This document shows, in pieces, positions 9,125-62,621 of a stretch of 64,000 nucleotides of DNA. The notes under the pieces were generated by a model. That model ran no database searches. It was not told where the DNA came from and saw only the letters and a program-made list of their open reading frames with translations. The stretch comes from Cenarchaeum sp. GTDB lineage: Archaea > Thermoproteota > Nitrososphaeria > Nitrososphaerales > Nitrosopumilaceae. A program made the translations under genes and the position numbers. How positions within the stretch are numbered: the first letter of the stretch is position 1; every line of letters begins with the position of its first letter. The stretch is from contig OZ243037.1 of NCBI GenBank assembly GCA_965212015.1, forward strand, positions 256,001 through 320,000, in the 5' to 3' direction.

Positions 9125-9994
9125 CTAGACTTGTTGCGCTTGCATTCGTGCAAGCCAGTCTGGCTTCTGCGGCTCCTCGTGCGTCTCTGCAGTAGGCTCT
9201 GGAAGAACGGCAGTCTCTGGTGCATTTGGAAGGACTGTAGTCTCTGGTGCATTTGGAAGGACTGTAGTCTCTGGTGCATTTGGAAGGACTGCAGTCTCCG
9301 GCTCTGGCGCCTTTGGAAGCTTTGTCTCGACGTCGGACTGTACGTCAAGGTATGACACTGCGGAATCCTGCAGGTGCTTTGGAGGTGACTCTAGCGTCTG
9401 CTGGACTTCCATGTTGAGATCAACAATCCTGCGCTGGACGTTTGAAATTTCTGCATTCTCGTGCGTGATTCGCTCTATCAAATCAGTCGCACGCGTGGTG
9501 ACCGTATCGAACACCGGTTCGGAAATCTCGTTGCTCTTGAATTGCACCTTTGCGTCAAACACCAGCATCTTTACTGCCTTTAACTGCTCGTCTAGATCCC
9601 CCTGCCTGACTTCGAGCTTTGAATTGATCTCTTTTTCGGTATCGGTAAATGCGACTAGCTGGGACTTGTACTTTTCGTTGATTATCGCAGCATCCTCTTT
9701 CATCTCGTCGTTTTCTGAGACAATGTCCATCATGGCCTTTAGGCGCCTCAGGGTGAGCCCCTTTTCTCGCAGCAGCCGCTGCGACTCGAGCCTCCACTTT
9801 GGAATGTATATGACAGTCTCGCCCTGCACGACTAGCTGCTCAAAGGATGTCTGCTGCAGGCCCTTTGAACCGCAGTCTATGCCGACAGTCTGGATGCTTC
9901 CGTCAATGTCAGTCATTGTCCCAATGACCCTTCCCATTATACTGCCATACATGTCCTTGACGGATTTGCCGATGAATTCCATATTGTCGCTCAT
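9125..9994 (-). CDS. cdvA: Cell division protein CdvA
   Basis: PRC-barrel N-terminus FIGKSVKDMYG..GRVIG, long coiled coil, short conserved-looking C-terminal peptide. Confidence 0.88.
   Translation of the reverse strand: MSDNMEFIGKSVKDMYGSIMGRVIGTMTDIDGSIQTVGIDCGSKGLQQTSFEQLVVQGETVIYIPKWRLESQRLLREKGLTLRRLKAMMDIVSENDEMKEDAAIINEKYKSQLVAFTDTEKEINSKLEVRQGDLDEQLKAVKMLVFDAKVQFKSNEISEPVFDTVTTRATDLIERITHENAEISNVQRRIVDLNMEVQQTLESPPKHLQDSAVSYLDVQSDVETKLPKAPEPETAVLPNAPETTVLPNAPETTVLPNAPETAVLPEPTAETHEEPQKPDWLARMQAQQV
9211..9298. repeat. 27-bp tandem repeat, 3 copies plus a partial copy, in the cdvA linker
   Basis: (c/t)agtctctggtgcatttggaaggactg x3; encodes ET(A/T)VLPNAP. Confidence 0.95.
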
Positions 9995-20139: not shown

Positions 20140-20140
20140 T

Positions 20141-20320
20141 TTATGGCCCCGTAAAGCTGCACGAATCGCACGTATAGTTTCTGGCAGCCTCCCTGCAGCT
20201 CTGGCACCTCCAGATCAGCACGGAATCGCAATTGGGACAGTTGAATTTTACGCACTTGTCGTTGGGCATTATGTGTCTGTTGCAACAGCTGCAAACCGGA
20301 AGCGATATGGCAGATGACAT
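20141..20320 (-). CDS. Small zinc-ribbon protein (DUF1610/HVO_2753-like), not in ORF track
   Basis: Hand translation, 59 aa: [59 protein letters not shown]; four CxxC; usual archaeal neighbour of EF-1beta. Confidence 0.92.
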
Positions 20321-20728
20321 GTATCACGATTCGGCTATGAACCGAATTTATATCTTGCTTGCTGTAATCTGGCTAATATCGATCAAAAACCACCCGGATT
20401 TGAAGGCCATGTCCAAAACCGGCACTAATCAGATGTCTCGTGCAGTATCAACCCTGTAGGGTTCGGCCCACATCTGTTTCAGATACGGGGGATTCTACGG
20501 GAAATGGCGGAATTCGGGGAACGGCAAACCTCAAAACAACCGGGCATTCCCACATGCTGTACTAGTGTGTGACCTAAAATGTGGTCTTAAAAACCCCGAG
20601 AAAACCGAACAACTGTCCGAATCATAAATGCGCATCACCTGCATGCCATAACAGCGAACCGAGAATTCTGGCTGATTATGGCCGGATTCGCATAATAACT
20701 TATAACAATCCTGGTGGTACATAACCTG

Positions 20729-22660
20729 ATGCGTCGCTCCTATTACTCTGATGGCATTTGCAAATTTCTGGATTCAGACAGCAATGAAATACTGACAGAA
20801 CTGCGTGAGAATGACATGTTTGAACCGGATAGAAATCAAGAGCAGGCATGGAAAAAACAGATCGAGATATTGAAAAGCCAGCTCCATGATCTAGAATCAG
20901 GACATATACTATTCGAATACACCATACCCAGAATGGGCAAGAGAGTAGACACTATTCTGATCTATGATGATTTTGTATTTGTTATGGAATTCAAGGTCAA
21001 CAAGACCGTATATCAGAAACAAGACGAGGATCAATGCATTGATTATGCACAGGATTTGAAGAATTTTCATGAGGAGAGCCATTGTGCCTCCATAATACCA
21101 ATTCTGGTTTCAACAAAGGCAAAAACAAAAGACAGCACAAAGATAACAAAATGCACAAATGGAGTATACGATATTGCATATGCAAATAAAGACAATATAA
21201 TCAAGGTCATCAAACACGTATGTGATAAGACTTCTGACTGTCAGATAATGCCCTCAAAGTGGGAAAAATCAGCATACCATCCCACGCCGACAATTACAGA
21301 AGCGGCAATGGCACTGTGCAGTAATATTTCAGGTCTTGAGGACATAACCAGATCTGATAAAAATACGAGAAATCTGGGCATTACCACTGATAGAATTTGT
21401 AAGATAATAGAACATTCAAAAAATTCTGGCTTGAAATCCATATGTTTTGTTACGGGTGTTCCTGGATCTGGCAAGACACTTGCCGGACTCAATATCGTTT
21501 GTGGTACGCAGAATAAAAAAAATAAACATGCCGTACTGTTGTCAGGTAATAGTGCACTTGTGGATGTGCTAAAGGAATCACTTGAAAAAGGCGGAGGTTG
21601 TTTAGAAAAATATGGAGGATCTGCGGCGGCTGCTCTCATACAACACATCTCAAAATTTCGGGACACAGCATTTGGAGTTAAAGCACCTTTGGAGAATATT
21701 ATTGTGTTCGATGAGGCTCAAAGGGCATGGTCTGCAAAAAAACTATCCAAAAACAACAGGAACAAGAATCGAAATGATTCAAAAATGTCTGATCCGGAAT
21801 TACTGATCAACTCAATGAACAAACATAATGGCTGGGCAGTCATGGTATGTCTTATAGGTGAAGGCCAAGAAATTTATGATGGAGAGGTTGGACTTGCAGG
21901 CTGGCTTGATGCGATAAAAAAATATCCAAAATGGCATGCATATCACCCAAAAGAATTGGAAAGCATTGAATACATCGATGAGAATGCGTCAACCGTACTA
22001 GATGGCATAACACACACGAGATATCCTGAACTGCATCTTGACACATCCATCCGATCCTTTAGGGGTGAAAATCTTGCGATGTTGGTCAAGAGAATTCTGG
22101 ACTGTGATGTTGACGGTGCACGCAAGACACTGGAAAGTTTGGAGAATTATCCAATCGTCATAACACGTGACATAAACAAGGCAAAGCAATGGATGAGAGA
22201 TCAAGCTAAAGGCACGGCACGATTTGGAATTATAGCAAGCTCTGGTGCGGAAAGGCTAAAACCGTACGGCATATACGTAAGAAATCCCATCAAGCCTACA
22301 AAATGGTTCCTTGCAGACAAGGAAGACATGCGATCCTCGTATTATTTGGAGGATGTCGGAACGGAATTCTACATACAGGGATTGGAGCTTGATTGGGCGT
22401 GTCTTGCGTGGGATGCAAACTTGAGATATGAAAATGGAAAATGGTCGCACCACAAGTTCTTTGGAAATAATTGGAGATCCATTCGACAGGAGAGAGAACG
22501 CACTTATTTGCTCAATTCGTATCGTGTACTATTGACTAGGGCCAGACAGGGCATGGTCATCTTTGTACCTAAAGGTGATAAAACAGACAAGACCAGAGAT
22601 CCAGAGTTTTATGACGGTACGTACGCGTATCTCAAAGACATAGGACTGGAAGAAATTTAG
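20729..22660 (+). CDS. DUF2075 (Schlafen group 3-like helicase) protein with N-terminal nuclease-like region
   Basis: EYTIPRMGKRVD...VMEFK (PD-(D/E)xK-like), Walker A GVPGSGKT, VFDEAQRAW, QGLELDW, YRVLLTRARQG. Confidence 0.88.
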   Translation: MRRSYYSDGICKFLDSDSNEILTELRENDMFEPDRNQEQAWKKQIEILKSQLHDLESGHILFEYTIPRMGKRVDTILIYDDFVFVMEFKVNKTVYQKQDEDQCIDYAQDLKNFHEESHCASIIPILVSTKAKTKDSTKITKCTNGVYDIAYANKDNIIKVIKHVCDKTSDCQIMPSKWEKSAYHPTPTITEAAMALCSNISGLEDITRSDKNTRNLGITTDRICKIIEHSKNSGLKSICFVTGVPGSGKTLAGLNIVCGTQNKKNKHAVLLSGNSALVDVLKESLEKGGGCLEKYGGSAAAALIQHISKFRDTAFGVKAPLENIIVFDEAQRAWSAKKLSKNNRNKNRNDSKMSDPELLINSMNKHNGWAVMVCLIGEGQEIYDGEVGLAGWLDAIKKYPKWHAYHPKELESIEYIDENASTVLDGITHTRYPELHLDTSIRSFRGENLAMLVKRILDCDVDGARKTLESLENYPIVITRDINKAKQWMRDQAKGTARFGIIASSGAERLKPYGIYVRNPIKPTKWFLADKEDMRSSYYLEDVGTEFYIQGLELDWACLAWDANLRYENGKWSHHKFFGNNWRSIRQERERTYLLNSYRVLLTRARQGMVIFVPKGDKTDKTRDPEFYDGTYAYLKDIGLEEI

Positions 22661-22754
22661 GGCGAATCCGAACATGCAGATCGTGTGAAAAATCTAGAAT
22701 AAGATTGGCAATCTCGAATTGATTTTTTACTGTCTAGATGAATTCCTCAAAACT

Positions 22755-23738
22755 TCAAAGCGATTCTGTCAGATATTTCTGCACTCCGTCCTTGCCTGAA
22801 CCGTATTTTTTCTCAAAATCTGTAGCAAGTCTGGATATGCACTTGGATATCTCATCATCAATAGAGTGATTCTTGAGTATCTTTGATGCCACATCGTCCA
22901 CCCATTTGAGAACCTTTACGTGATAGTTTTTCTCCTCGCTAACAAAATCCCACAGTTCACGCCCTATCAACAGCCTTTTCTCCCAGTCCGTCATGTATTT
23001 CTTGACCAGTCCTATTGATACCGTGTTGAGGCCACGCTTGCCATATGTGATTCCTAGCCGGGCAAATTGGTTCTTTTTTTTCTCGGTTTCATCGAATTTT
23101 TGATTAAACCTGTCGATCTGATCCTTGTTGACGTTGTTTGGGCCGCTTTTAACCTGTATCCAATATGTGGAATCACCGATCTCCTTTACGATATCATACC
23201 ATTCCCCCCGCTCTCCCATGCGGGCGCCACTGTTGCCGATCATGTATTCCAGGGACATTCCCATGGAGGTAACGATGGAACGGGTAACGGCCTGATAAAC
23301 GTTGAATCTGATCACCTCCTCTGGAACCTGTAGGTTCAACGCCCGGATTAGAAACGGATTCATGTTTATCTCGCTTAGCGACAAACTGTTCATGTTGTGC
23401 AAAAACTTGTGAATTATCCTGTGCATGGTGAATCTTATCCAATTCTCCGGAAGGGACGAATTTGGATTGATATGCTCTTTGATTTTCTCTGCCATTTTTC
23501 GTTCGTTATCACGAAGTGTTATCTCTGTCTTGTCGCCACTGCGTATGAATTTGGCAGTTTTGAAATCGGTATTTTTGAAGGCTTTCAGGGTGGAGAATTG
23601 TGATGCCAGAATTTCAGCTTTTTTGCCGAAATTGCCTTCTTTTTTTAGCAATACGGTTAGAAAATGAAAGACTTCGGAATCTGGCAACACCAAGTCGTAA
23701 TCGCTTTCAATATTAAGTATTTTCATAATGATCGGCAC
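22755..23738 (-). CDS. Type II restriction endonuclease, EcoO109I/PmeII-like
   Basis: RSIVTSMG..LE, YD...WIQVKSGPNNVN, GRELWDFVS; co-oriented downstream of a C5 MTase. Confidence 0.8.
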   Translation of the reverse strand: MPIIMKILNIESDYDLVLPDSEVFHFLTVLLKKEGNFGKKAEILASQFSTLKAFKNTDFKTAKFIRSGDKTEITLRDNERKMAEKIKEHINPNSSLPENWIRFTMHRIIHKFLHNMNSLSLSEINMNPFLIRALNLQVPEEVIRFNVYQAVTRSIVTSMGMSLEYMIGNSGARMGERGEWYDIVKEIGDSTYWIQVKSGPNNVNKDQIDRFNQKFDETEKKKNQFARLGITYGKRGLNTVSIGLVKKYMTDWEKRLLIGRELWDFVSEEKNYHVKVLKWVDDVASKILKNHSIDDEISKCISRLATDFEKKYGSGKDGVQKYLTESL

Positions 23739-23835
23739 AAATCACATGTTGATGTGCCGTGTCTTCCAGCATGGCTTGATTTCTGTTAATATCTGCCCAA
23801 ATTGCTGTGTGTATGAGTAGAAAAAATTACAAACT

Positions 23836-25020
23836 TTAAATGAATTTTTTTATCGCAGCGGCAATTGTCCTTGCTAGTTCTATTGGGACTGCCTCGCCAA
23901 TCATCCGGTATTTCTGGGTGACGGATCCTACAAACTTCCAGTTGTCTGGAAATCCTTGCAGTCTTGCATATTCTTTAACTGATAGTGGGCGAAGTTCATC
24001 CGGATGACAAATACAGCTTCCAAGCTGTGCCGGCGATGTAATCAATGTTGGAGCCGGTGCGTCCCATGACAATCTGCGGTAAAATCCACGTCGTCCTCCC
24101 TGCTTGCCTTTTTTTCTTGGATCTGACGAGTCCGCAGCACCCCCCATTGCTTCTCTTTTGAGGCGTTCCGGCAAGTCAATCCAGCAACCTCCTGCCGGGA
24201 CATATTTTAGATATTTTCCCCATTTTGGAAAATTGATGTGTTCTTTTTCGCGATCATCTAGTCCAACCAATGCATCCCGCAAAGTTCTCCACGGCTTTTT
24301 ACCAATCACTTTGGTATTTTTTGGATCTGCAAACTTTGCCTTTTTTTCAATCTCCTCAAAGATCAATTCGGGATCCGCCACTCTGGATCCTATGAGCACA
24401 AGCCTCTTTCTTTTTTGCGGAACTCCATAATCTGCGGCATTTAGCAGCTTCCATTTTATTTTATAGCCGCTCACTTTTTCAAACTCGTCTATAATCTCCT
24501 CAAAAAGCGAGCCGTATTTTTGTGATTTGGTAATCTTTTTTCCAGAATCTGACATTCTGTCATAGAATGAGACGTGTTTTTTGGCAGCCGATACAAGACC
24601 CGGTACGTTCTCAAAGACAAAGAATTTGGGTTTTATGTCGTTTATTATTCGAATGTACTGCAAGAGGGCAAAGCCGCGCTTGTCCTTGAAGCCTCGTCTT
24701 TTTCCGGCAGTAGAAAACGACTGGCACGGCGGACCGCCTATGATGATGTCCACCTCTCCTTTCTTCATGGATGCCTTTTGGAGTATGTCTGATGATCCTA
24801 TGTTCGTTATGTCTCCCTCATCGCATGATATGCGTGGCCTGTTCTCCCTTATTGTGTTGCAGGCAAATTTTGTAATATCGTTGGCGTATTTTGTGGAAAA
24901 ACCGGCCTTTTCAAACCCCAGATCTAGGCCCATTCCGCAAGTAAAGAGCGATATTATTGTGGGTTGAATTATCTGCTGTTTTTGTTGTTTATGAGCAGGG
25001 CGGATTTTTTGTCTGTACAT
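23836..25020 (-). CDS. DNA (cytosine-5) methyltransferase, probable partner of the adjacent REase
   Basis: SLFTCGMG, GGPPCQSFS, FENVPG, PQKRKR, RLQGFPD. Confidence 0.95.
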   Translation of the reverse strand: MYRQKIRPAHKQQKQQIIQPTIISLFTCGMGLDLGFEKAGFSTKYANDITKFACNTIRENRPRISCDEGDITNIGSSDILQKASMKKGEVDIIIGGPPCQSFSTAGKRRGFKDKRGFALLQYIRIINDIKPKFFVFENVPGLVSAAKKHVSFYDRMSDSGKKITKSQKYGSLFEEIIDEFEKVSGYKIKWKLLNAADYGVPQKRKRLVLIGSRVADPELIFEEIEKKAKFADPKNTKVIGKKPWRTLRDALVGLDDREKEHINFPKWGKYLKYVPAGGCWIDLPERLKREAMGGAADSSDPRKKGKQGGRRGFYRRLSWDAPAPTLITSPAQLGSCICHPDELRPLSVKEYARLQGFPDNWKFVGSVTQKYRMIGEAVPIELARTIAAAIKKFI

Positions 25021-25135
25021 CGTATACGATCAATCCTTGTGAAATAAAAGTATTAATGTTGCTGGTTATATTGTAATAACCTTATAAGGATCTTAACCAT
25101 TATATCTACTAAAAAACATGATAAAGTGTATTTAA

Positions 25136-25360
25136 ATGAAATTCGATCAAAAAGGAAGACGAATAAAAGAGAAAATACACTATGCCGAAAAACTGAATTC
25201 AGGTGATATTGTAGCTGATTTGGAATCCAGATATGCGGGAATCGCAGATTCGGCCATAGAGGTGGTTTTTGAAATGGCTAATAAGGACGAGATCGAGGAG
25301 ATTCATGCGGTTTTACGTGAGATACAGCCATATTCCTCAAAAATTAACACATTTATCTGA
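25136..25360 (+). CDS. Small hypothetical protein upstream of the DISARM-like block
   Basis: 74-aa ATG ORF after an AT-rich divergent promoter region, 16 bp before the large helicase ORF. Confidence 0.55.
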   Translation: MKFDQKGRRIKEKIHYAEKLNSGDIVADLESRYAGIADSAIEVVFEMANKDEIEEIHAVLREIQPYSSKINTFI

Positions 25361-25376
25361 TCACTGTGTTTGATAT

Positions 25377-28300
25377 GTGTTGATTAGAACACATCTTGTG
25401 AAAGCCCTTTATAGCGATCTTCTTGGCCCAAAAGGTGGAAATAAAGAACGCTTTGAAGAACCATTTTTAAACTATGAATTAGGTATTTTGAATTCATCAT
25501 TTTCTTTGAAATCTGATATTGAACAAATAATTTTAGATTCTGAGATAAACTCAGATCCTGCAGAAATTAATTATGAAGAATTAGATTCGCCAAAGATTGA
25601 GAATACTCAAAATTCAGATAACATACGTCAAGACATTGATACTGAACTTAATCTTAAATCTGGTGCTTTATCACTTGGCCTCTCATTTGTTGTAGAAGGT
25701 GATAATCCAAAATTGAAAATATGTGGTACATGGGCCAGATATTTACAGGATAAACAGATTAATAATACTGGCAGGATATTTAATCGATATCCTAATTTTT
25801 TTGTAACTGAATATGATGTAAAAAATTCTCAATCTCGAATAATAAAAGAATTAAAAACTGGTGTGGATGGAAGTAATATAACACATCCAGGTGTTGTTCT
25901 TCATATTTTCAAAAAAGAAATAAAAAACACTAAATGGATTATCAAAATTTTCTTAGAAAATAAGACAAAATATGATACAGAAAAAAATCAAACTGAAAAA
26001 GATAGGATCTTTCAACCTCAAATTAGAGTGAGATTATACAATTCCAAACTAGTTGATCTGGATTCAGATCACCAATTTGATCATAGAAATTATGATAGTG
26101 ATGATTTACTTTATCTGAATTATAGAACAAAAGCTAGGGGTTATCTTTGTGCAGCGGTTTGGGACGAAATTGATCCAGAAAAAGATCAACAAAGTGAAAT
26201 TGGAAAAATGACATGGCCAGATTCTTTATCTGTGCCGGAGAATATTAGAAACACATTCATTAATCCTAGTGTCAGAACCGAATACCTTCCATTATATACT
26301 ATATTGCAACCTGATCAAAAGAATAAATCTACTTTTAGCGCATCAGTATTATCAGAATCATGGAATATTGAAGATATTGATGATCATTTACGATCAATAC
26401 CACAAAATTACAATAATTGGATAGAATCACAAAAAACAATTTTAATGAAAAATAAAAATTTAGGATTAATTGATAAGAAATTAAAATCAATTGGTGACAA
26501 CAACCTTCAACATTGTCTTGATATAAAAAATCGAATTGATGAGGGTATAGATTTTTTACAAACTAATGAAAAGGCTAGAGCAGCATTCTGTTTTATGAAT
26601 GTAGTAATGAATGATAAACGACTTTATGATGAAAATAAATCTTTGGATTGGAAAGAATTCCAAATGGCATTTATTTTACAGAGTCTAAAAGGTGTAAGTG
26701 GTGTATCAGAAATTGATCGAGAGGTCGCAGATGTTCTCTGGTTTCCAACAGGTGGAGGGAAAACAGAGGCATATTTGGGAATTGTAATCTTTGCCATAGC
26801 ATACAGAAGATTAACATCACGTGGCAAATTGAGTAATGATGGTGGCGTATCGGTAATCTCTAGATATACGTTAAGACTACTCACAATCCAACAATTTCAA
26901 CGTGCATTGGGGGCGCTCATCGCTGCGGATATACGGAGAGTCGAAAATTGGCTGCCAAAAGATGCCAAGGGTGGATCTAGAAAAATCTCAGATCCATACA
27001 TGCTTAAACGATTTGAAGGCGGTAAATTGTGGGGAAATCAACGCTTTTCAATTGGAATGTGGATCGGCAGTGAAACTACTCCCAAGGATTTTTGCTATGC
27101 AACTGGAAAAAAAGGCAAAATATTTCTTAACTGTGAAGGTGCATTATTACCGCAGTGGGATAAAAGAAGAAAATTTACATCAGACAGAGGAGGAGATCCG
27201 GCACAAATACAGACATGTCCTGTTTGTAAAAATATACTGTGTCTTTCCAAAGAACAAAAAAGTAGTGGAACCAAAACTTTAACCTGGATAATTAATTCTC
27301 CAAAATCATTAGATGATCTAAAAAATATTCCAAAAAAAGAATTTGAAAATTCTAGAATGACTCTTGAAAAAAATCCTATATTTGATTTCATCTGTGATTC
27401 ATCAACAGATAAGCATTATTATCGATTAACCATGGAAATTTCATCTAAGAGAAGTATCGATAGACAATCAGTTGATTTGTGGTGGAGATCATTTGTCAAA
27501 CCACAATTGGATCCTAATATTGATAATGAACCATTGGAGTCTACAGCTCCATCAATGCCAGGGTATTTTTTCTTGCAGATTCCTGGTTCCAGACGACCTC
27601 ATGATTTTGCGATTTTTTGTACTCATAAAGAATGCAAGCTAAACAATACAAAATGGTTTGAAAAAATTGAAGGAAAATATAATGCAATAATTCCAGAACC
27701 ATTTCAAATTATTGATTCACCTGGAATCTCTAGATCAGTTCCAATCTCTGCATTTACTTCTGATGAACAAATATATTTCCAATGTCCTAGTTTATTAATA
27801 GCTACTGTAGATAAATTTGCCAATCTTCCTTTTGAACCAAAATGCTCTTCACTTTTTGGAAATGTTGATGTAGTTCATCCTTGGTATGGTTATGGTAGAC
27901 GTATTACTTTTGAAACACCAATACAACAAAGAAGCAGTAATCGACGAATTCAAACTGAATTTTCCGATCTGAAAGATATTGCCGGATTTAATCCTCCATC
28001 ATTAATCTTACAGGATGAATTACACTTGATTGAAGGGCCACTTGGAAGTATGGTGGGAATATATGAAATGGCCGTTGATGTTCTTTCTAATGATGGAACT
28101 AGACCAAAATATATTGCATCAAGTGCAACGATCAAAGAATCTAAATCTCAGGTTGGTACAATTTTTAGACGTGATGTTAATGTTTTCCCACCCCTAGGAA
28201 TCAATTCCTCTGATAATTATTTTTCAGAGATTAAAGAAGATATAGGATGTGTTGGTAATAATGCAGGTAGATTGTATCTAGGAATATCTTCAACAAAATC

Positions 28301-31300
28301 TACTGTTACACTTCCAATCAAAGCACAATCGATAATAATGAGTGAGATTTTTAAAATAAAATCAAATCCAGAAGGCTATAATCTAACTGATTATGAAAAA
28401 AATAATTTGGAGGATGCGATTGAACCATATTGGACATTTGTTTCATATTTTACTGATTTACAAATTTTAGCAAAGTTTGAAAATTATTATTCTGAAAATA
28501 TCATTGATTATGTTTCTAAGTGGAGCTCGATAAAAATACCCAATTCTCATTCAAACGCATCTCCTAATTCTGTAAAACCAGGATTAAGGTTTTTTCCTAT
28601 CAAACTTGATCGTAATATAGAAATTTCTAAAATAATAGTTTATTGTACTAATTCTAACGGAAAAATCAAAATTGCATTATATAAAAATGGAGATCCAATA
28701 GGAAATATGATTCACAAATTTGACTATCAAAATTGTAAGATTGGCGAAAATTTGTTTGAATTACCCGATCTTTTTAGTATTAAAAATAATGAAAAAATCT
28801 GGATAGCAATAATTAATGATTCTGAAGACACAATTTTTGAAACAGTTTCTACAAATTATGGTTCTCTTGAAAGTGTAGGTAATGTTCATGAAGATTTTCC
28901 AGATATAATTGAAAATCTAGATAAATTTTCTGGAAATTCAATAAAACTAAGTCTTAATTCTTTTAGGCAATTGCATACAAAAAATAATATTCGATTATCC
29001 AGTGAGACTAAATCTGAAGATCTTGTTAGAAATCTAGACCGACTTAAATCTCGCATGGATGTAGATTCTCTACAAACATCACCAGTTTTTGGAACTGGAA
29101 TAGACATTGATCGTCTGGGTCTGATAGAAATAATGAATCAACCTAAAACAAATTCTGGTTATATCCAATCATCTGGTCGTGTAGGACGAACCAAGCCAGG
29201 ATTGGTGATTAATTGGCTCCGTGCTGGAAGGGCTAGAGATCTAAATCACTATGAAAATTTTATCGGCTATCACAGAATGTTACATAGATTCGTTGAGCCT
29301 GTAACTGCATCACCATTTTCTGATGAGGCAATGAAATTATGTCTTGGCCCAATAATAGTGGCAATTCTACGTAATGCTAGATCCGTCTTAGGTAATCCAA
29401 TCAATACTGGATGGGTTACAGATGCAGGAACGGTTAGAATGGATGAACATAGAAATGATCCGGAAATAATTGCCATTGAAAATATTTTGGAGCAAATTTC
29501 CTCATCAGAATTTATAGCAAAATTTAGAAGAATGCAGAAAATACATTTCAAGAATTTATTTAAAAAATCAAAAGGAAATTGGCATGAAATGGCAAAAGAT
29601 TTGAAGGATAACATCACACCATTATTTACATATGCAGAAAGAAGACCACATGTGACACCATCAAATAATGTGGTACTTGGAACTCCCAATCACACAGATT
29701 TAGGATTAGAAGTCGTGTATGAAGACACTCCAAACTCTTTACGACAAACTGAATCCACATCAACTTTTTTTAAATCAAGTGTAGATACCGTTCAAATTAG
29801 ACCATCACAATTCATAACAAGATATGGTCCGGGTACTCTGATATCTAGAAAAACATCCACTTGGGTAATTCCATCACTTGGAGAATTAGTCTCCAATCTA
29901 AACGGTATAGGAAATTTTGAAGAATCCGATACCTTGGGAAATCGAGAGCTCTATAAATATGAAGTAAAAGATTCAAGAATGAAACGTATCATACGTCGAT
30001 TTAATCCAAAAACAAATTGGGAAAAACTGAGATTTTTCTCCATGCCGACAAATTCTTCACTTACTATAGAAGACATCAAACCAGTATATCGTTGTAATGA
30101 ATTTCCACAATGGGCTATATGTCATAATAAATTACACCCTTCTAAAAAAATCCTATCTAAAACATCTTATGATAACCATATCTTGAGTGTCAAATGTCCA
30201 GAATGTGCTCGATTATCTAGCAATGCGTATAGTACTGAATTTTACAGTGTTCGATATGTACTGGCCTGCAAAAATGGCCACTTAGGAGATCTCAAATGGG
30301 AGTTTGAAATTCATCGATCGACGAATTCTAAATGTTCTGGGGATGTATTCGAATGGATTACATCTGAAAATAATGATAATGTGGAAATTATATGTTTAGG
30401 ACATTGGGATAAAAATAACAATTCTTTTATTTCTAGTAATTGTCATGCTCGCACTACATATTTTGATCTTAAAATAAAATCAAAAAATGGACAGCTTGAT
30501 TGTACTGCACAATTTGCCGAATCAGGTAATGATCCTAATGGATGTGATAGGATCAATGGAATATCACAAGCAAAAATGGTAAGCAAGACTCAGATGAGTA
30601 TAAGAATGCCAGTTATAATGACCACGATGGAAATTCAAAGATATAAAGGAATTCTTTTTGAACTCTATGAACCACTGATATTGGTAATTAAAACACTTTT
30701 TAAATCAACAAATTACACGAAGGAAGATTTTATAAAATATTTGGAAGAAGAAAAAGAAGATGGAACAAAGGGAATTACCAATAATATGATCAGACAAACT
30801 CGCACTGCAACAGATTCAGTTTTTTATGATGTAATTAAGGAAATTATAAAATTTGCTAGAACTAAAGACTCAAAACACGGATCATTATCGGAATATCAAT
30901 CATTAGAAGAAGAATTATTAAGCTTGGAAAATCAAACTCGTGATAATGGTACGGTTGTTCAAGTTGGGCCGGATGATCCTCCTACGGATATTCGATTTCC
31001 AATCTCATTTTCTGCTTCGGGAATAAATTTTGAAGCTATGCCATTTGGGGACATAAAAGTAACACAAATTCAATCTGGATATACTAGAGAAATTTCTCCA
31101 CCCATAATCGAAAATTCTCAAGAGCTCGCTGACGAACAAAACGATGGACGACGAATAGGTAATTTTGTTTCTTTTTCTGCAAAATTTACTGATGAAAATG
31201 ATAATACTTGGTATCTAGCAAATCAATTAAAAGGAGAAGGTATATTCATTCATCTTGATCCAGAACATCACAAAAATGCAATGGATATCTTTAATAATTT

Positions 31301-31844
31301 TAAATCAGAAGATTTTAAAAAATGGAAAAACATTCATGAACAGACAGTAGAAAAAAACACTCCTATACTTAAACAAATTCAAAATAAGGAAGACAAACAG
31401 AAAGATTTTGATGCATTGGAAATGGAAAATATTCTTACGAACCCTCTTTTTGTTTGGTGGCATTCTTTTGCACATGAATTAATCAATCAACTTGCGATTG
31501 ATTCAGGTTTTATGGGAGTATCATTAGGCGAGCGTGTATACTGTATACAAAAACATGAAGGACGTTATTCTGCTGGCATATTCATTTATGCTTCTAGCCC
31601 TGGTGCTGATGGCACACTTGGAGGACTTACTAGCCTAGTCGATAAAAACATTCTTCCCAAAATTATTGAAAAAACTCTAACAAAAATCAATAATTGTTCA
31701 AATGATCCAATATGTTCGGATAGAAGAATTAATGACAAGAGACGTACTGGAGCAGCATGTCATATTTGTTTGATGAATTCGGAAACATCTTGTTCATATA
31801 GGAATAGATTTCTTGATAGAAATTTGGTAATGAATACATTATGA
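25377..31844 (+). CDS. DISARM-like DrmA helicase fused to DrmB (DUF1998)
   Basis: DrmA-type motifs DLLGP, WFPTGGGKTEAY, RYTLRLLTIQQFQRA, QDELHLIEGPLGS, ASSATI, YIQSSGRVGR; then DrmB-type IRPSQFITRYGPG, CKNGHL, HSFAHELI, DGTLGGL, CSNDPIC..GAACHIC..SETSC..RNRFLDR. Confidence 0.88.
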   Translation: MLIRTHLVKALYSDLLGPKGGNKERFEEPFLNYELGILNSSFSLKSDIEQIILDSEINSDPAEINYEELDSPKIENTQNSDNIRQDIDTELNLKSGALSLGLSFVVEGDNPKLKICGTWARYLQDKQINNTGRIFNRYPNFFVTEYDVKNSQSRIIKELKTGVDGSNITHPGVVLHIFKKEIKNTKWIIKIFLENKTKYDTEKNQTEKDRIFQPQIRVRLYNSKLVDLDSDHQFDHRNYDSDDLLYLNYRTKARGYLCAAVWDEIDPEKDQQSEIGKMTWPDSLSVPENIRNTFINPSVRTEYLPLYTILQPDQKNKSTFSASVLSESWNIEDIDDHLRSIPQNYNNWIESQKTILMKNKNLGLIDKKLKSIGDNNLQHCLDIKNRIDEGIDFLQTNEKARAAFCFMNVVMNDKRLYDENKSLDWKEFQMAFILQSLKGVSGVSEIDREVADVLWFPTGGGKTEAYLGIVIFAIAYRRLTSRGKLSNDGGVSVISRYTLRLLTIQQFQRALGALIAADIRRVENWLPKDAKGGSRKISDPYMLKRFEGGKLWGNQRFSIGMWIGSETTPKDFCYATGKKGKIFLNCEGALLPQWDKRRKFTSDRGGDPAQIQTCPVCKNILCLSKEQKSSGTKTLTWIINSPKSLDDLKNIPKKEFENSRMTLEKNPIFDFICDSSTDKHYYRLTMEISSKRSIDRQSVDLWWRSFVKPQLDPNIDNEPLESTAPSMPGYFFLQIPGSRRPHDFAIFCTHKECKLNNTKWFEKIEGKYNAIIPEPFQIIDSPGISRSVPISAFTSDEQIYFQCPSLLIATVDKFANLPFEPKCSSLFGNVDVVHPWYGYGRRITFETPIQQRSSNRRIQTEFSDLKDIAGFNPPSLILQDELHLIEGPLGSMVGIYEMAVDVLSNDGTRPKYIASSATIKESKSQVGTIFRRDVNVFPPLGINSSDNYFSEIKEDIGCVGNNAGRLYLGISSTKSTVTLPIKAQSIIMSEIFKIKSNPEGYNLTDYEKNNLEDAIEPYWTFVSYFTDLQILAKFENYYSENIIDYVSKWSSIKIPNSHSNASPNSVKPGLRFFPIKLDRNIEISKIIVYCTNSNGKIKIALYKNGDPIGNMIHKFDYQNCKIGENLFELPDLFSIKNNEKIWIAIINDSEDTIFETVSTNYGSLESVGNVHEDFPDIIENLDKFSGNSIKLSLNSFRQLHTKNNIRLSSETKSEDLVRNLDRLKSRMDVDSLQTSPVFGTGIDIDRLGLIEIMNQPKTNSGYIQSSGRVGRTKPGLVINWLRAGRARDLNHYENFIGYHRMLHRFVEPVTASPFSDEAMKLCLGPIIVAILRNARSVLGNPINTGWVTDAGTVRMDEHRNDPEIIAIENILEQISSSEFIAKFRRMQKIHFKNLFKKSKGNWHEMAKDLKDNITPLFTYAERRPHVTPSNNVVLGTPNHTDLGLEVVYEDTPNSLRQTESTSTFFKSSVDTVQIRPSQFITRYGPGTLISRKTSTWVIPSLGELVSNLNGIGNFEESDTLGNRELYKYEVKDSRMKRIIRRFNPKTNWEKLRFFSMPTNSSLTIEDIKPVYRCNEFPQWAICHNKLHPSKKILSKTSYDNHILSVKCPECARLSSNAYSTEFYSVRYVLACKNGHLGDLKWEFEIHRSTNSKCSGDVFEWITSENNDNVEIICLGHWDKNNNSFISSNCHARTTYFDLKIKSKNGQLDCTAQFAESGNDPNGCDRINGISQAKMVSKTQMSIRMPVIMTTMEIQRYKGILFELYEPLILVIKTLFKSTNYTKEDFIKYLEEEKEDGTKGITNNMIRQTRTATDSVFYDVIKEIIKFARTKDSKHGSLSEYQSLEEELLSLENQTRDNGTVVQVGPDDPPTDIRFPISFSASGINFEAMPFGDIKVTQIQSGYTREISPPIIENSQELADEQNDGRRIGNFVSFSAKFTDENDNTWYLANQLKGEGIFIHLDPEHHKNAMDIFNNFKSEDFKKWKNIHEQTVEKNTPILKQIQNKEDKQKDFDALEMENILTNPLFVWWHSFAHELINQLAIDSGFMGVSLGERVYCIQKHEGRYSAGIFIYASSPGADGTLGGLTSLVDKNILPKIIEKTLTKINNCSNDPICSDRRINDKRRTGAACHICLMNSETSCSYRNRFLDRNLVMNTL

Positions 31845-32386
31845 ATTCATATTCTTTAGGCAATATTGAATCTATTGGAGCTTCAGGAAAAGCTTGGGTC
31901 GGATTTCATGCCGTTGATTTAGCAGATATGTTTTTTGAAGTACTTCGTTCTGCTAAAAAATCAATACAAATCTCTTCATTCTCCACAGGATATCAAAGTA
32001 AAGAAATGGATATTTTTTTTAATATTCTTGAAGAACAATTAGAAAACCCTCAAATGAAAATTAATATAATTATAAATGACGACGGAAAAAATAAAACTGT
32101 GACTCCATATGCTAGAAAAAACCTTGAAAAACTTCGTAATTCTTTTTCGAATCAGTTTTTTCTTCAATATTTCGAACAAAAAAATAGCAAACATCATAAC
32201 AAGATCTTACATGCAAAAATTACTGTTATTGATGGCAAGATTGCTTTAATCGGCTCAGCAAATATTTCTAAAAGTGCATTAGAATCAAATTATGAAATAA
32301 TGATGAAGATCTCTGGACAAGCTGCAGTGGATATCTCTAAAATGATATCCCATTTATCATCACAAATGAGGTTAAATAAAACATGA
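31841..32386 (+). CDS. Phospholipase D-family nuclease, DrmC-like
   Basis: Single HKD motif HAKITVIDGKIALIGSAN...NYE; ATGA overlap with the upstream gene. Confidence 0.88.
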   Translation: MNSYSLGNIESIGASGKAWVGFHAVDLADMFFEVLRSAKKSIQISSFSTGYQSKEMDIFFNILEEQLENPQMKINIIINDDGKNKTVTPYARKNLEKLRNSFSNQFFLQYFEQKNSKHHNKILHAKITVIDGKIALIGSANISKSALESNYEIMMKISGQAAVDISKMISHLSSQMRLNKT

Positions 32387-33846
32387 CGGATATACAATCT
32401 GAAAAAGCTAAATATAAACAAGAAAATAACTTTGCTAGAAAGATGTTAGAAGTATTAATACCACAATATAATAAATCTCTTCAAATAGACATGATACAGG
32501 AATGTGGTGCAATAATGAAGAATATTAGGAGATTTTCATCTAAAACATCATCAAAGGATTTTACAACTCTGGTCAATTCATGGACTATCAAAGGTGCAAA
32601 TGGCGAACCAGCATATTTCACTATGGATTTTACATTACCAATAATACAATATATTCCATCTGCATTCAAACCGATTCATTTTAAATTTAACTTTACAATC
32701 TACAATCAAGTAGAATATGTTCCATGTTATATGATGAATCTAAATCATGTAACATTGGTTAAAATCACACAAAATTTTAATTCCGATATATATAATAATC
32801 TAGATAAAAGCATATTTGCTAAATACGTATATGAGGGTGGAAGATCAATGAATTTTTCTTCATCAAATATTCTTCTTTTAGGTGCAACAAAAGAACACGT
32901 TCAAGCTTCAAAACATGATATCATTGAAAAATGTTTTGAGTATTGTTATTGGCATTTACCAACACCAAAAAATATGAATGATGTTTCCTGTCTACATAAT
33001 TTAATTTATCATAAAAGTAAATATATTGTTAATGGTGGTGTGCTTCAATTAAGGAAAACAATATTAAAAATAATTAAAATTAATGGCAAATCAATGTTAA
33101 AAATTTTACCATCAGGATCGAGTATAAAATGTAAATCAGTTTTTGTTTCGATATTAGTAGATGATGGCAAAAAAATTTTCTCAGAAAAACGCCATATGTT
33201 TATTACAGAAAATATAATAAATTCACTTAAAAATAATGATATTATACATGCAATAATAATTACCCAAAATATCTGTCATCCAAAATTTTCTTTAATAATT
33301 GGAAAAATTGGAAATATAATAGATCTAAGTAATTTAAAACCGTTTCTCAGTATAATTTTTTGGAAACATTTACAAGATATAACAGAAAATTCCAGCATTA
33401 CAAAAGTTGGACATTTAAAAAATATCACAGAATATACGTCTAAAATATTACAAGATAATTCGAATGAAGATGATCTTTTTTATCCACTATTTATTTGGAA
33501 TACAAAACTTTCAAAGAATATAGAAAAATCAATCTTGGAATTATTTCCATTATATATATTCGATGATGATATAATTCATCAGTTATCGCCGACGATGTTA
33601 TCATTTCTTCTAACAATCTCACCAGAAATCGTATCTGATAAGAAATTTATTAACACAATAATACATTTACTTGATCATTTGAATATTAATTCTAATAATT
33701 GGGGAAAGAATTCTACTTCGATATTAGATTCTAAAAACAACGTTGTAACTCCATCACTTAATACTATTCTCAGTAATTTACCAAAAATTGTAAATAGAAT
33801 GACTTATTCAAGAATATTTTCTAAGCATTACACTTGTTGGAATTAA
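32383..33846 (+). CDS. Hypothetical protein coupled to the DISARM-like operon
   Basis: 487-aa ORF in very AT-rich DNA, overlapping the PLD gene stop; no recognised motif. Confidence 0.8.
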   Translation: MTDIQSEKAKYKQENNFARKMLEVLIPQYNKSLQIDMIQECGAIMKNIRRFSSKTSSKDFTTLVNSWTIKGANGEPAYFTMDFTLPIIQYIPSAFKPIHFKFNFTIYNQVEYVPCYMMNLNHVTLVKITQNFNSDIYNNLDKSIFAKYVYEGGRSMNFSSSNILLLGATKEHVQASKHDIIEKCFEYCYWHLPTPKNMNDVSCLHNLIYHKSKYIVNGGVLQLRKTILKIIKINGKSMLKILPSGSSIKCKSVFVSILVDDGKKIFSEKRHMFITENIINSLKNNDIIHAIIITQNICHPKFSLIIGKIGNIIDLSNLKPFLSIIFWKHLQDITENSSITKVGHLKNITEYTSKILQDNSNEDDLFYPLFIWNTKLSKNIEKSILELFPLYIFDDDIIHQLSPTMLSFLLTISPEIVSDKKFINTIIHLLDHLNINSNNWGKNSTSILDSKNNVVTPSLNTILSNLPKIVNRMTYSRIFSKHYTCWN

Positions 33847-34130
33847 ACTATAATCATTAGATCTTATATTCATCAAATAAAAAATTCTAATTGAAAAATA
33901 ATTATCAAAGACCAAAATAAGCATCAAATCATGAATTTATTCACTTATGATGTATCTAGTAATTTTTGTGATATTTTTTGATTCTAACATCATTAGCTAT
34001 ATTTGCGATCTAAAACCAAAAAGATTTTACTACTATAGCTGCAAGACTTGTCTGTATTTTATATGTGGTTATAATATCATAACCTAGATCAACTAAAACA
34101 TTTTAACCCATATCTCTTTTTGTATAATCA

Positions 34131-35108
34131 ATGAAAAAGCTAACCTGCGTCATGATGGACGACTATATCTCGCGAACCAATTCTGTTCTCCAGCCTACAA
34201 GGCGGCCAAAATACTCGGTTCTGGATCTGTTTGCCGGGTGCGGCGGGCTCTCGCTGGGGTTCGAATCGGCGGGCTTTAAAAGCACGGGAATGGAGTACGA
34301 TGCGACGTGTTGCGAGACGTACAATGCCAACCTACAGGGAGAATGCATTCCGAAACTCATCACGTCTAGAACCGATTTTCCGGAGGCTGATGTGATAATA
34401 GGCGGGCCGCCGTGCCAGCCGTTTAGCGTGTTTGGCAACCAGCAGGGAAGAATGGATTCGAGAAACGGATTCCCTCTGTTTATCAGTGCGGTAAAAAAGA
34501 CAAAGCCCAGAATATGGATGTTTGAGAATGTAAGGGGGATGCTGTACCGAAACAAGGATTATTTTGAGGCCACGGTAGGAAAGCTAAAGGCACTGGGATA
34601 TCGCGTGGAATACCGGCTTTTAAACGCGGTAAACTATGGGGTTCCACAGAATAGGGTGAGGGTAATTGCCATAGGCCACCACAAAAGCTTTGAATTCCCA
34701 AAGGAACACGGCAAAGCCGTGACCTCCGGCGAGGCACTAAAAGACACATATCGCAAATGCTGGCGCGACTCAAAGTTTTTGACGCCCAGCATGGACAAAT
34801 ACATTGCGTCATATGAGAAAAAATCCCATCTCATCAATCCGCGCGACATGCATCTGGACAGGCCAGCAAGAACCATAACGTGCAGGAACCTTGCGGGGGC
34901 GACATCCGATATGCAGCGAATCAAGCTATCCGACGGCCGGAGAAGACGGCTTACCGTGCGGGAAGGGGCCAGACTGCAAAGCTTTCCGGACTGGTTTGAG
35001 TTTCTGGGGGCAGAGACTGAGCAATTCAACCAGATTGGCAACGCAGTTCCGCCTCTGTTTGCGCGCGCACTGGCCACACAGATAAAAAAACACCTGGATG
35101 CGTATTGA
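34131..35108 (+). CDS. DNA (cytosine-5) methyltransferase (candidate DrmMII equivalent)
   Basis: DLFAGCGG, GGPPCQPFS, FENVRG, PQNRVR, QIGNAVPP. Confidence 0.95.
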   Translation: MKKLTCVMMDDYISRTNSVLQPTRRPKYSVLDLFAGCGGLSLGFESAGFKSTGMEYDATCCETYNANLQGECIPKLITSRTDFPEADVIIGGPPCQPFSVFGNQQGRMDSRNGFPLFISAVKKTKPRIWMFENVRGMLYRNKDYFEATVGKLKALGYRVEYRLLNAVNYGVPQNRVRVIAIGHHKSFEFPKEHGKAVTSGEALKDTYRKCWRDSKFLTPSMDKYIASYEKKSHLINPRDMHLDRPARTITCRNLAGATSDMQRIKLSDGRRRRLTVREGARLQSFPDWFEFLGAETEQFNQIGNAVPPLFARALATQIKKHLDAY

Positions 35109-35166
35109 CTTGGCAAGCACAAAGATAGATGAGGTGCCAATTATTGCCCAAACAGGTGCGCCACAG

Positions 35167-62401: not shown

Positions 62402-62522
62402 CGCCGGGTAGGGATTCGAACCCTTGCGTCGGGATTGTAGGCGTGATTTTGCAGATTTGGGCAGCCTTTTGGCCCTGCCTAGTCGAGATCCATACCGGAA
62501 GGGTTGGAATCCCACACCGGCG
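62402..62522. other. Inverted pair of tRNA-3'-end-like (att-like) sites
   Basis: 62402-62425 read on minus: aagggttcgaatccctacccggcg; 62499-62522 on plus: aagggttggaatcccacaccggcg (20/24 identical); no D-arm or anticodon arm found. Confidence 0.65.
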
Positions 62523-62621
62523 GCCTGTCCAGCACCATACCCTATGGATCGGCGCAGAGCTTGTCGGAGGTTCAATATGAAAGTTCCGGGGGGGCTTAAA
62601 AGGGCCTCACAATTGGGAAAC

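Follow-up and report, generated by a model that had tools for sequence, protein, structure and literature searches.

DISARM systems share an SF2 helicase (DrmA), a DUF1998/MZB protein (DrmB) and an adjacent phospholipase D (PLD) protein (DrmC), and the class 2 system of Bacillus paralicheniformis reportedly has the gene order drmE-drmA-drmB-drmC-drmMII. The class 1 system of Serratia sp. SCBI (PDB 7s9v/7s9w; PMC9142583) carries DrmD (SNF2) and DrmMI (adenine methylase), and its separate DrmA and DrmB must heterodimerise; in that study, the system depends on heterodimer formation, on ATP hydrolysis and on the binding of single-stranded DNA (ssDNA), DrmC does not co-purify with DrmAB, and DrmA has a disordered trigger loop (residues 176-232) that closes off the DNA site and is pushed aside by a 5' overhang. 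One-chain proteins uniting a helicase with an OB-CON-DUF1998 'canopy' are usual in the YprA family (10.1101/2025.09.15.676423, section 7), with DISARM as the only branch having consistently separate parts (section 8), and that preprint links the Cas11-like domain found in DrmC to this separation. Here we describe a DISARM-like locus in a 64,000-nucleotide (nt) stretch of a Cenarchaeum sp. genome (GCA_965212015.1, contig OZ243037.1, positions 256,001 to 320,000 of the forward strand; hereafter the window), in which DrmA and DrmB form a single polypeptide of 2155 amino acids (aa; DrmAB), followed by drmC and by an accessory gene of 487 aa without family assignment (U487). By analogy with the described systems we read it, with a probability of about 0.75, as a class-2-type DISARM, associated with a cytosine-5 (C5) methyltransferase, in which DrmA and DrmB have been re-joined and which has U487 as an accessory gene, with a predicted activity in defence.

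A first-pass annotation, made from the sequence alone, had described the 2155-aa open reading frame (ORF) as a DrmA helicase followed after 14 residues by DrmB, and had assigned it to DISARM, a better match to DruE or DpdJ being one of its refuting outcomes; PADLOC, PDB and motif positions all agree with the DISARM assignment. The best PADLOC matches are the DrmA model PDLC02571 (E = 0, 1021.9 bits, with residues 3-1051 as the best-matching stretch) and the DrmB model PDLC02583 (E = 3.1e-107, residues 1470-2154), and all 13 of the 13 PADLOC families matched at E <= 0.01 are DrmA or DrmB. Pfam assigns Helicase_C to residues 1202-1272 and MZB/DUF1998 (PF09369), the zinc-binding domain of MrfA, to residues 2031-2132 (2.6e-06). 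Only two PDB sequences match, namely 7s9v_A (DrmA, 1.2e-86) and 7s9v_B (DrmB, 3.7e-29), so that the Serratia class 1 complex is the sole solved relative by sequence, with which the helicase motifs are shared. In 11 of 11 fused homologs, the Walker A motif PTGGGKT (457-463), DELH (880-883), residues Q1264 and G1267-R1271 of motif VI (QSSGRVGR, 1264-1271) and the four cysteines C2107, C2113, C2128 and C2131 are invariant. With respect to the N terminus, DrmAB may truly start at a TTG at 25380, giving MIRTHL as in the homologs. Residues 3-130 align weakly with residues 136-266 of 7s9v_A (independent E value, i-E, 0.017) with conserved motifs on the flanks, and residues ~41-95, which would take the position of the trigger loop, are acidic and unconserved in the consensus of the fused-homolog alignment. 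Two split DrmA relatives of about 1650 aa (P0079 and P0095) have a precomputed PF01878 (EVE) domain, in agreement with the EVE-like domain given for DrmA in Table S2 of 10.1101/2025.09.15.676423.

At the junction itself, TPNSLRQTE stops at residue 1459 and IRPSQFITRYGPG begins at residue 1474, 14 residues on. The junction alignment has split DrmA proteins ending a few residues past NSLRxxE and split DrmB proteins starting a few residues ahead of (I/L)RPSQ(F/Y), with about 15 residues bridging both motifs in the fused proteins; the fusion is a simple end-to-start join in which nothing was lost. The annotation had named a stop or frameshift at the junction in raw reads as a refuting outcome; contigs assembled from runs of two studies cross the junction and show neither a stop nor an indel there (approximately nt 29754-29795; these are contigs, not raw reads, and one of the runs that yielded them may be the source sample). 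A compensated -1/+1 pair is present about 140 nt upstream of the linker in one low-depth contig.

A homolog search of 5.8 billion proteins gave 310 matches, and the best 120 of these 310 were analysed by domain mapping. Among these 120 listed homologs, 84 cross the junction in one chain, comprising 72 window-like full-length fusions (2024-2255 aa, 36-82% identity), a second length class of 7 fusions (1757-1913 aa), 1 N-truncated fusion and 4 fragments that still span the junction, and the other 36 are DrmA alone. One member of the shorter class, from a Streptosporangiaceae metagenome-assembled genome (MAG), is named 'DISARM system helicase DrmA' by NCBI. The closest of the listed relatives of the window protein is 82% identical and is full-length. 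The DrmA-DrmB fusion is therefore real, neither an artefact nor a one-off, and it is under selection. Among species-representative genomes the fused form is rare, being found in 1 of 80 DrmA-bearing loci (L001, a Nitrosopumilus MAG), and among 201 sampled genomes of the host's family, 14 have a DrmB-like match and 2 of them are fused (the host and G555).

The fused proteins do not form a single group. On a FastTree phylogeny computed from DrmA sequence only, after DrmB had been trimmed away (140 rows and 1485 columns), the window DrmAB lies in a 79-row clade (support 100) composed of 78 fused rows and P0050, a truncated fused protein, and the sister of this clade is a 14-row split clade. Fused rows also turn up within split groups: this holds for P0076, P0077 and P0116, and for actinobacterial proteins that include the one with the NCBI name 'DISARM system helicase DrmA' and that stand beside a split Streptomyces protein. 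The tree requires at least 6 changes of state between fused and split, the exact number being uncertain in view of long-branch and composition-bias warnings for some rows, including P0116; the fusion clearly originated more than once. Of the distinct fused subtype that the annotation had proposed, the genuine and conserved fusion stands, but it is not peculiar to this genome, given its presence in 84 of the 120 listed homologs and its repeated origins.

The two genes that follow are tightly packed behind DrmAB. ATGA start/stop overlaps occur at both the DrmAB/DrmC and the DrmC/U487 junctions, and DrmAB, DrmC and U487 are thus translationally coupled, just as had been described from the sequence for a PLD gene with a single HKD motif followed by a 487-aa gene of no recognised family. 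DrmC matches PLDc_2 (4.3e-18) and, as its best PADLOC model, PDLC02614 (2e-22); it has a single HKD motif (H124, K126, D131), invariant in 20 of 20 aligned DrmC sequences. PDLC02614 has 153 positions, compared to 234-269 in the other DrmC models listed, and the window DrmC is without the extra N-terminal region (~90 residues) of those longer models. Within the clade, this short DrmC is found with fused DrmAB as well as with separate DrmA and DrmB, which argues against a strict link between the Cas11-like domain and the split architecture. Chloroflexota relatives with the same short DrmC carry no U487; the genes after their DrmC (513 aa in L006, 568 aa in L008 and 333 aa in L009) were considered as U487 candidates and rejected (hidden Markov model, HMM, E ~0.5), and they match no PADLOC family.

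U487 matches no Pfam or PADLOC family at E <= 0.01, and 36 aligned family members likewise match none at E <= 10 (PADLOC) or E <= 1 (Pfam). A HMMER search of 1.84 billion representatives returned 60 U487 clusters at E <= 1e-3, 31 of them at E <= 1e-30, mostly of 470-500 aa. With respect to neighbourhood, we observe DrmC followed by U487 in all 10 of the 10 fused loci with enough downstream sequence (the window, L001, L082, L083, L085-L088, L091 and G555, of which L082 and L083 are near-identical), which is how the annotation's suggested search for other fused drmAB loci turned out; in the second set of 80 loci, neighbours were read individually for 31 (L082-L112), whereas the search with the U487 profile took in all 80. 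More remote relatives of U487 (profile E 1e-33 to 1e-45) lie beside split DrmA, DrmB and DrmC in L002 (Cenarchaeum), L003 (a Methanomethylicaceae MAG), G316, L092, L094-L096, L098 and L104, and metagenome contigs are among the sequences that pair U487 with the split genes. The orientation of U487 varies: L094-L096 have it convergent, in L092 it lies upstream, and the G510 copy is divergent. As a check independent of DrmA, the U487 profile alone was run over 401 genomes of the phylum and gave 8 matches including the host, 5 of them real and outside the host: 3 directly after DrmA/B/C, 1 in G510 and 1 a 150-aa fragment (G367). Two weak matches (G601 and G637, E ~1e-4) are thermosome subunits and were discarded as false positives. 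All 4 intact non-host copies from this search sit beside DrmC or a DUF1998-PLD gene, as do 20 of the 20 intact copies whose context was seen, with a helicase nearby, and the association holds across DrmA divergence down to ~32% identity. Because U487 stands beside DrmC in fused and split relatives alike, it is older than the DrmA-DrmB fusion. The annotation's new accessory subunit is thus a coupled gene distinct from DrmE, as claimed, but one that predates the fusion and also accompanies split DrmA/B/C.

Several loci show related arrangements. In G510 (L173, G510:C115, 3982-11728), a U487 homolog of 473 aa (profile 6.5e-58) is divergent to a 797-aa DEAD/DEAH helicase, which is followed by a 784-aa DUF1998/MZB protein with a C-terminal PLD domain (a DrmB-DrmC-like fusion) and then by an N4/N6 methyltransferase. 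The locus L004 (10001-19046, a Nitrosopumilus MAG) is decayed: what is left of DrmA is an N-terminal piece of 487 aa and of U487 a piece of 298 aa, with a type II restriction-modification pair (PDLC03430 and an N-methyltransferase) between them. In L171 (G555:C1:960000-979000) a PD-(D/E)XK nuclease gene comes after the fused cassette, IS630-like, IS66 and DDE_Tnp_1 transposase genes flank the region, and two upstream genes without assigned function (409 and 185 aa) match in size genes upstream of DrmA in L004. Several bacterial loci and one DISARM locus from Nitrosocosmicus (L005, L011, L015 and L059) have a helicase-like protein of ~580-612 aa next to DrmC or DrmB, in the place of U487 or DrmE, with weak matches to PbeA and type IV restriction enzymes; it may be another alternative accessory gene.

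We compared U487 with a true DrmE from L020 (759 aa; PDLC02637 1.2e-87, with the NCBI name and PF24957), which is encoded directly upstream of DrmA. None of the 36 U487 family members matches the DrmE PADLOC models at E <= 10 or PF24957 at E <= 1, and hhalign gives U487 a probability of 0.2% against the L020 DrmE and 0.19% against a 5-member DrmE profile; U487 as DrmE is ruled out on sequence, and the 487-aa protein does not score as the ordinary DrmE that the annotation would have taken as a refutation. An AlphaFold model of DrmE from 5 sequences reached a predicted local distance difference test (pLDDT) score of 57.8 and a predicted template modelling (pTM) score of 0.35, values too low for comparing its fold with that of U487, and it is by sequence that U487 is set apart from DrmE. 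A duplicated DrmAB domain was also rejected as an identity for U487 (hhalign probability 0.3% against the fused DrmAB profile).

The AlphaFold2 model of U487, built on the 36-sequence alignment (pLDDT 88.3, pTM 0.90), consists of an N-terminal helical hairpin, two oligonucleotide/oligosaccharide-binding (OB)-like beta barrels at residues ~64-310, a winged-helix-like alpha/beta part at ~313-402 and a C-terminal helical bundle. In the PDB, Foldseek finds p204 HIN1 as the single structure at E <= 0.001 (7.2e-4), followed by HIN-200, RPA70, CST and single-stranded DNA-binding protein (SSB) structures (TM score 0.17-0.37, identity 3-13%). The VIA search, which is independent of Foldseek, returns BRCA2 OB, LEF-3, RPA70/32, Stn1-Ten1 and PriB over residues 79-330 and winged-helix proteins over residues 313-402, all at Z <= 4.5, where its guidance is that Z below 8 may reflect a common arrangement only. 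Nothing in BFVD reached E <= 0.001, LEF-3 and SSB being again among the sub-threshold matches, and a search of the ESM Atlas gave no usable match and found no U487 model there. The closest structural counterparts of residues ~79-330 are thus RPA70/RPA32, Stn1-Ten1, BRCA2 OB, LEF-3 and HIN-200, all below significance, and a winged-helix-like part follows in U487 as it does in RPA32 and Stn1; we take the modelled OB-fold likeness as a lead on the fold, not as membership. The family has a median isoelectric point of 8.9, the second barrel of the window U487 carries a net charge of +11, and the invariant residues (Y116, N121, W190, P193, K225 and P389) include no Asp, Glu or His. A basic family without invariant Asp, Glu or His favours a non-enzymatic binding role, and on the model U487 would, at roughly even odds, be a non-enzymatic nucleic-acid binder. 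Prediction of a complex between DrmC and U487 scored 0.00, which gives no answer and is uninformative either way.

The locus has a C5 methyltransferase on each side, as the annotation had stated, but this should not be taken to mean two cognate methylases, since only the upstream type recurs with fused relatives. Both match PF00145 (upstream 8.6e-72, downstream 1.4e-65), and the best PADLOC model of the upstream enzyme is DrmMII (PDLC02650, 2.4e-106). Its close homologs are found beside fused DrmAB in L001 (2e-182), L085 (2e-141) and L082 (6e-66). In L085 the homologs of this methyltransferase and of the adjacent EcoO109I-like restriction enzyme (3e-36) are paired upstream of fused DrmAB, and in L082 the methyltransferase sits downstream of U487, though it is nearer the upstream type than the downstream type (6e-66 versus 2e-47). 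No U487 locus has a close homolog of the downstream methyltransferase, whose closest homologs (68%, 54% and 53% identity) adjoin unrelated unassigned genes or a TIR gene, not DISARM. More broadly, a C5 methyltransferase lies within 3.5 kb in 13 of the 16 U487 loci with informative flanks, G510 having its N4/N6 methyltransferase instead; none is found within 2.3-6 kb in L086 and G555 (4.7 kb upstream and 5.7 kb downstream in the latter). From these sequence relationships the upstream enzyme is probably the cognate DrmMII and may also serve the adjacent restriction enzyme, while the downstream enzyme remains a candidate for the cognate role next to the upstream methyltransferase. The EcoO109I-like enzyme, encoded immediately downstream of this methyltransferase gene in the same orientation, is a neighbouring restriction-modification partner, not a DISARM core gene. 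In L001 a Vsr-type endonuclease (9273-9683, minus strand; PDLC03397, 2e-19) is encoded between the C5 methyltransferase and fused DrmAB. Vsr is the usual companion of 5-methylcytosine methylation.

Table 1. Coordinates of the DISARM-like locus and its surroundings in the window.
Feature	Position (nt)	Strand	Details
Fused DrmA-DrmB	25377-31844	+	2155 aa; GTG at 25377
Variable acidic loop, putative DrmA trigger-loop position	25497-25661	+	Residues ~41-95
SF2 helicase core of DrmA part	26745-29189	+	Walker A, DELH, motif VI; Helicase_C
Fusion linker (STSTFFKSSVDTVQ)	29754-29795	+	Residues 1460-1473, NSLRQTE to IRPSQF
DrmB part	29796-31844	+	Residues 1474-2155; four-Cys DUF1998/MZB at nt 31695-31769
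DrmC, short single-HKD PLD nuclease	31841-32386	+	181 aa; HKD at nt 32210-32233
U487, accessory gene without family assignment	32383-33846	+	487 aa
Upstream C5 cytosine methyltransferase	23836-25020	-	394 aa; divergent from DrmAB across 356 bp
Downstream C5 methyltransferase	34131-35108	+	325 aa; 284 bp after U487, same strand
EcoO109I-like type II restriction endonuclease	22755-23738	-	327 aa; PF14511 2e-16
PDC-S41 / Schlafen-type helicase, candidate defence gene	20714-22660	+	648 aa; PDLC05014 5.2e-245; PF09848 1.3e-70
Defence island, ~15 kb	20140-35166		Between aEF-1beta and FAD oxidoreductase gene

These genes form part of a defence island (Table 1) set between housekeeping genes, with CDC48 and aEF-1beta on the left and the FAD oxidoreductase and PTH2 on the right. 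Two genomes of the genus, G719 and G735, have no island, with ~300 bp separating aEF-1beta from the oxidoreductase, and a third is rearranged in this region; with the flanks this close in 2 of 3 same-genus genomes, the island is a 15-kb insertion. The host is an ammonia-oxidising archaeon because its genome encodes archaeal AmoA (9.4e-119), which bears out the thaumarchaeal host that the annotation had named. Neither a tRNA gene nor, at the gathering threshold, an Rfam family was found in the window, and no tRNA-type integration site was identified for the island. The PDC-S41 match of the 648-aa protein at the left end of the island is near end to end; this Schlafen-group-3-type helicase is part of the island and outside DISARM. 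The left border itself (20140-20713) is 574 bp with a GC content of 0.48 and no ORF of >= 80 aa wholly inside. Elsewhere in the window, between 50000 and 64000, there is a second low-GC region (~41-44% GC at positions 50-60 kb) with a DUF3800 protein, several ORFs without family, an IS630-like DDE_3 transposase (56586-57593) and tyrosine integrase genes at 60767-61999 and 62424-63917, and this region is probably an integrated element.

GC content at third codon positions (GC3) divides the island into three compositional strata and makes it a mosaic. DrmAB (0.19), DrmC (0.20) and U487 (0.17) are a compositionally foreign three-gene cassette compared with host genes (0.64-0.69); the PDC-S41 helicase (0.39), the restriction enzyme (0.53) and the upstream methyltransferase (0.43) are intermediate, and the downstream methyltransferase (0.60) has a host-like composition though it lies inside the island. 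In 6 of 7 other fused loci, cassette GC (0.32-0.38) is near flank GC (0.28-0.36), five of these six having flanks of more than 2 kb and the seventh locus (L087) having no usable flank. Since the cassette fits its flanks in low-GC relatives and is foreign here, its sequence composition makes it most likely that it is native to low-GC Nitrosopumilus-like genomes and was imported into the high-GC host. A high-GC Cenarchaeum MAG (L002, 9908-18231) carries the split order DrmMII-DrmA-DrmB-DrmC-U487 at GC 0.37 with flanks at 0.61-0.62. Transfer from low-GC to high-GC ammonia oxidisers has taken place at least twice, in the window and in L002.

In terms of classification, the core features of DISARM are found, with the DrmA SF2 helicase, DrmB with DUF1998/MZB and an adjacent DrmC of the PLD type, whereas DrmA and DrmB are not separate adjacent genes whose products form a heterodimer. 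The class 2 hallmark, a C5 methyltransferase in the locus, is present, which of the two is cognate being a matter of inference. In likeness to class 2 DISARM, the locus has homologous DrmA, DrmB and DrmC and an adjacent C5 methyltransferase that scores best as DrmMII, but it differs in its one-chain DrmAB, its short DrmC, U487 after DrmC, the lack of DrmE and its archaeal host. DrmE was found neither among 9 island-region proteins nor among 92 neighbours of relatives (the host genome as a whole was not searched with DrmE models). The annotation had counted this lack of DrmE as a distinguishing feature, a point that falls away: in class 2 systems drmE is found only 'on occasion' (10.1101/2021.12.28.474362), and an optional gene does not set the system apart by its absence, even if the PADLOC type II definition requires DrmE. 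Its statement that drmD and an adenine methyltransferase are lacking holds, in that the class 1 components DrmD and DrmMI of Serratia are absent from the 9 island-region proteins at E <= 0.01 and a search of the entire host genome (99.7% complete) with the DrmMI model PDLC02640 gave 0 matches (DrmD was not searched genome-wide). DrmE (PF24957) and U487 are both accessory genes of DISARM with a type II methyltransferase, but DrmE has 759 aa and lies upstream of DrmA, whereas U487 has 487 aa and usually lies downstream of DrmC. The single chain is shared with MrfA/YprA, DruE and DpdJ, yet by sequence and tree the window DrmAB is a DrmA and DrmB fused secondarily inside the DISARM branch. What is new here is the conserved DrmA-DrmB fusion with the linked U487 family, the core being recognised by existing PADLOC DrmA, DrmB and DrmC models. 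A literature search, with Ofir et al. 2018 and the supplementary PDF of the YprA preprint outside it, gave no fused DrmAB, no DISARM in ammonia oxidisers and no U487-like family. Table S1 of 10.1101/2025.09.15.676423 lists a 'DISARM-like helicase' for Cenarchaeum symbiosum A and Nitrosopumilus whose architecture is not described there, and neither a DISARM helicase in fused form nor a protein like U487 appears in Table S2.

For a mechanism we draw on the work on Serratia and Bacillus DISARM. By analogy, fused DrmAB would act in cis as the DrmA:DrmB heterodimer. After displacement of the autoinhibitory loop it would load on invading DNA at exposed single-stranded 5' ends and translocate with ATP; the fusion would secure a 1:1 stoichiometry of two partners whose interaction the split system requires. 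DrmC would provide nuclease activity, and the upstream C5 methyltransferase would mark host DNA as self and perhaps guard it against the EcoO109I-like enzyme. Most speculatively, U487 might be a non-enzymatic, tandem-OB-like nucleic-acid-binding subunit that recognises or holds ssDNA or recruits DrmC, a role proposed for a clade that has neither DrmE nor the N-terminal domain of the longer DrmC.

Several observations weigh against the class-2-type reading and the mechanism built on it. The mapping of the trigger loop depends on a weak alignment (i-E 0.017), and the OB-fold reading of U487 is built from a model with sub-threshold matches (best Foldseek E 7e-4 with TM 0.2-0.35, best VIA Z 4.5). 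Methylation dependence is not assured, with L086 and G555 having no C5 methyltransferase near. The upstream methyltransferase stands beside a restriction enzyme in the window and in L085 and could belong to a separate type II restriction-modification system, and in L082, G316 and L098 a methyltransferase follows U487 on the same strand, as the downstream enzyme does in the window. The codon composition of the cassette is far from that of the host, and its expression may be poor.

Some of these points bear directly on competing explanations. The cognate methyltransferase could be the downstream one, or both could act, with the upstream enzyme serving only in its EcoO109I-like pair; the downstream gene follows U487 closely on the same strand inside the inserted island, an arrangement repeated in L082, G316/L174 and L098, and the upstream enzyme does have a restriction partner both here and in L085. 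The GC3 of the downstream gene (0.60, against 0.17-0.20 in the cassette), the absence of its close homologs from every U487 locus, the non-DISARM neighbours of its nearest relatives, the closer fit of the L082 enzyme to the upstream type and the recurrence of that type in L001, L085 and L082 speak the other way, and we regard this alternative as unlikely, though with a real chance of being right. We are somewhat more doubtful of a further possibility, in which DrmAB-DrmC-U487 is a self-contained mobile module without a methyltransferase of its own that uses the C5 methyltransferase of the recipient island, self and non-self being told apart mainly by free 5' ssDNA ends through the helicase and U487, an OB-fold ssDNA sensor replacing DrmE and the Cas11-like domain of DrmC. 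If so, U487 would, in view of the arrangement in G510, work with YprA-type helicase/DUF1998/PLD machines in general and not be specific to DISARM.

A cassette so foreign in composition (GC3 0.17-0.20 against 0.64-0.69), in an island missing from 2 of 3 same-genus genomes examined and with related loci in decay (the L004 fragments, the interrupted N terminus of L091, the 150-aa remnant in G367), could also have arrived recently and be ill-adapted to this host, unexpressed or without function, as a passenger in the defence island; yet none of its three ORFs is broken in 8.5 kb of AT-rich sequence, the catalytic motifs and both ATGA couplings are kept and the closest relative is 82% identical and full-length, so that we consider this quite improbable. 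Slightly less probable again is that U487 is a hitch-hiking independent gene (a separate defence, a regulatory gene or an anti-defence decoy): its lack of detectable similarity to any defence family, its variable orientation (L094-L096, L092, G510) and the Chloroflexota relatives with the same short DrmC and no U487 would fit, but the ATGA overlap with DrmC in the window, the position beside DrmC or a DUF1998-PLD gene in 20 of 20 intact copies and a linkage persisting to ~32% DrmA identity do not. Another single-chain YprA-family helicase, DruE or DpdJ, would account for a one-chain helicase with DUF1998, usual in that family according to 10.1101/2025.09.15.676423 (sections 7 and 8), but PADLOC holds models for both and nonetheless returns DrmA and DrmB only (E <= 0.01), as does the PDB, the protein is nested among split DrmA on the tree, it has no C-terminal nuclease domain and the island has no deazaguanine genes; this identity is very hard to credit. 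The same is true, to an even greater degree, of an assembly or sequencing artefact joining two genes, in favour of which nothing was found, the caveat being that the evidence consists of contigs and that one run is possibly the source sample: the junction is spanned by 84 of the 120 listed homologs, whose sequences stem from many assemblies made independently, the linker aligns among the fused proteins and a contig of the second study crosses it without a stop or indel. The reading that we retain is thus a class-2-type DISARM with a re-joined DrmA-DrmB and the accessory U487.

Studies of the essential DrmA:DrmB interaction have so far dealt with the split form only. The fused clade supplies a natural single-chain DrmA:DrmB, which could ease structural and biochemical work, and it offers a test of the suggested tie between the Cas11-like domain and split architecture. 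Defence finders that work by rules may under-call a protein fitting the DrmA and the DrmB model at once. Because the fusion arose several times, the split between DrmA and DrmB is reversible. U487 is a candidate DNA-recognition or nuclease-recruitment factor for class-2-type systems without DrmE, and the locus documents the transfer of a defence cassette from low-GC to high-GC genomes among ammonia-oxidising archaea, whose defence against viruses is little studied.

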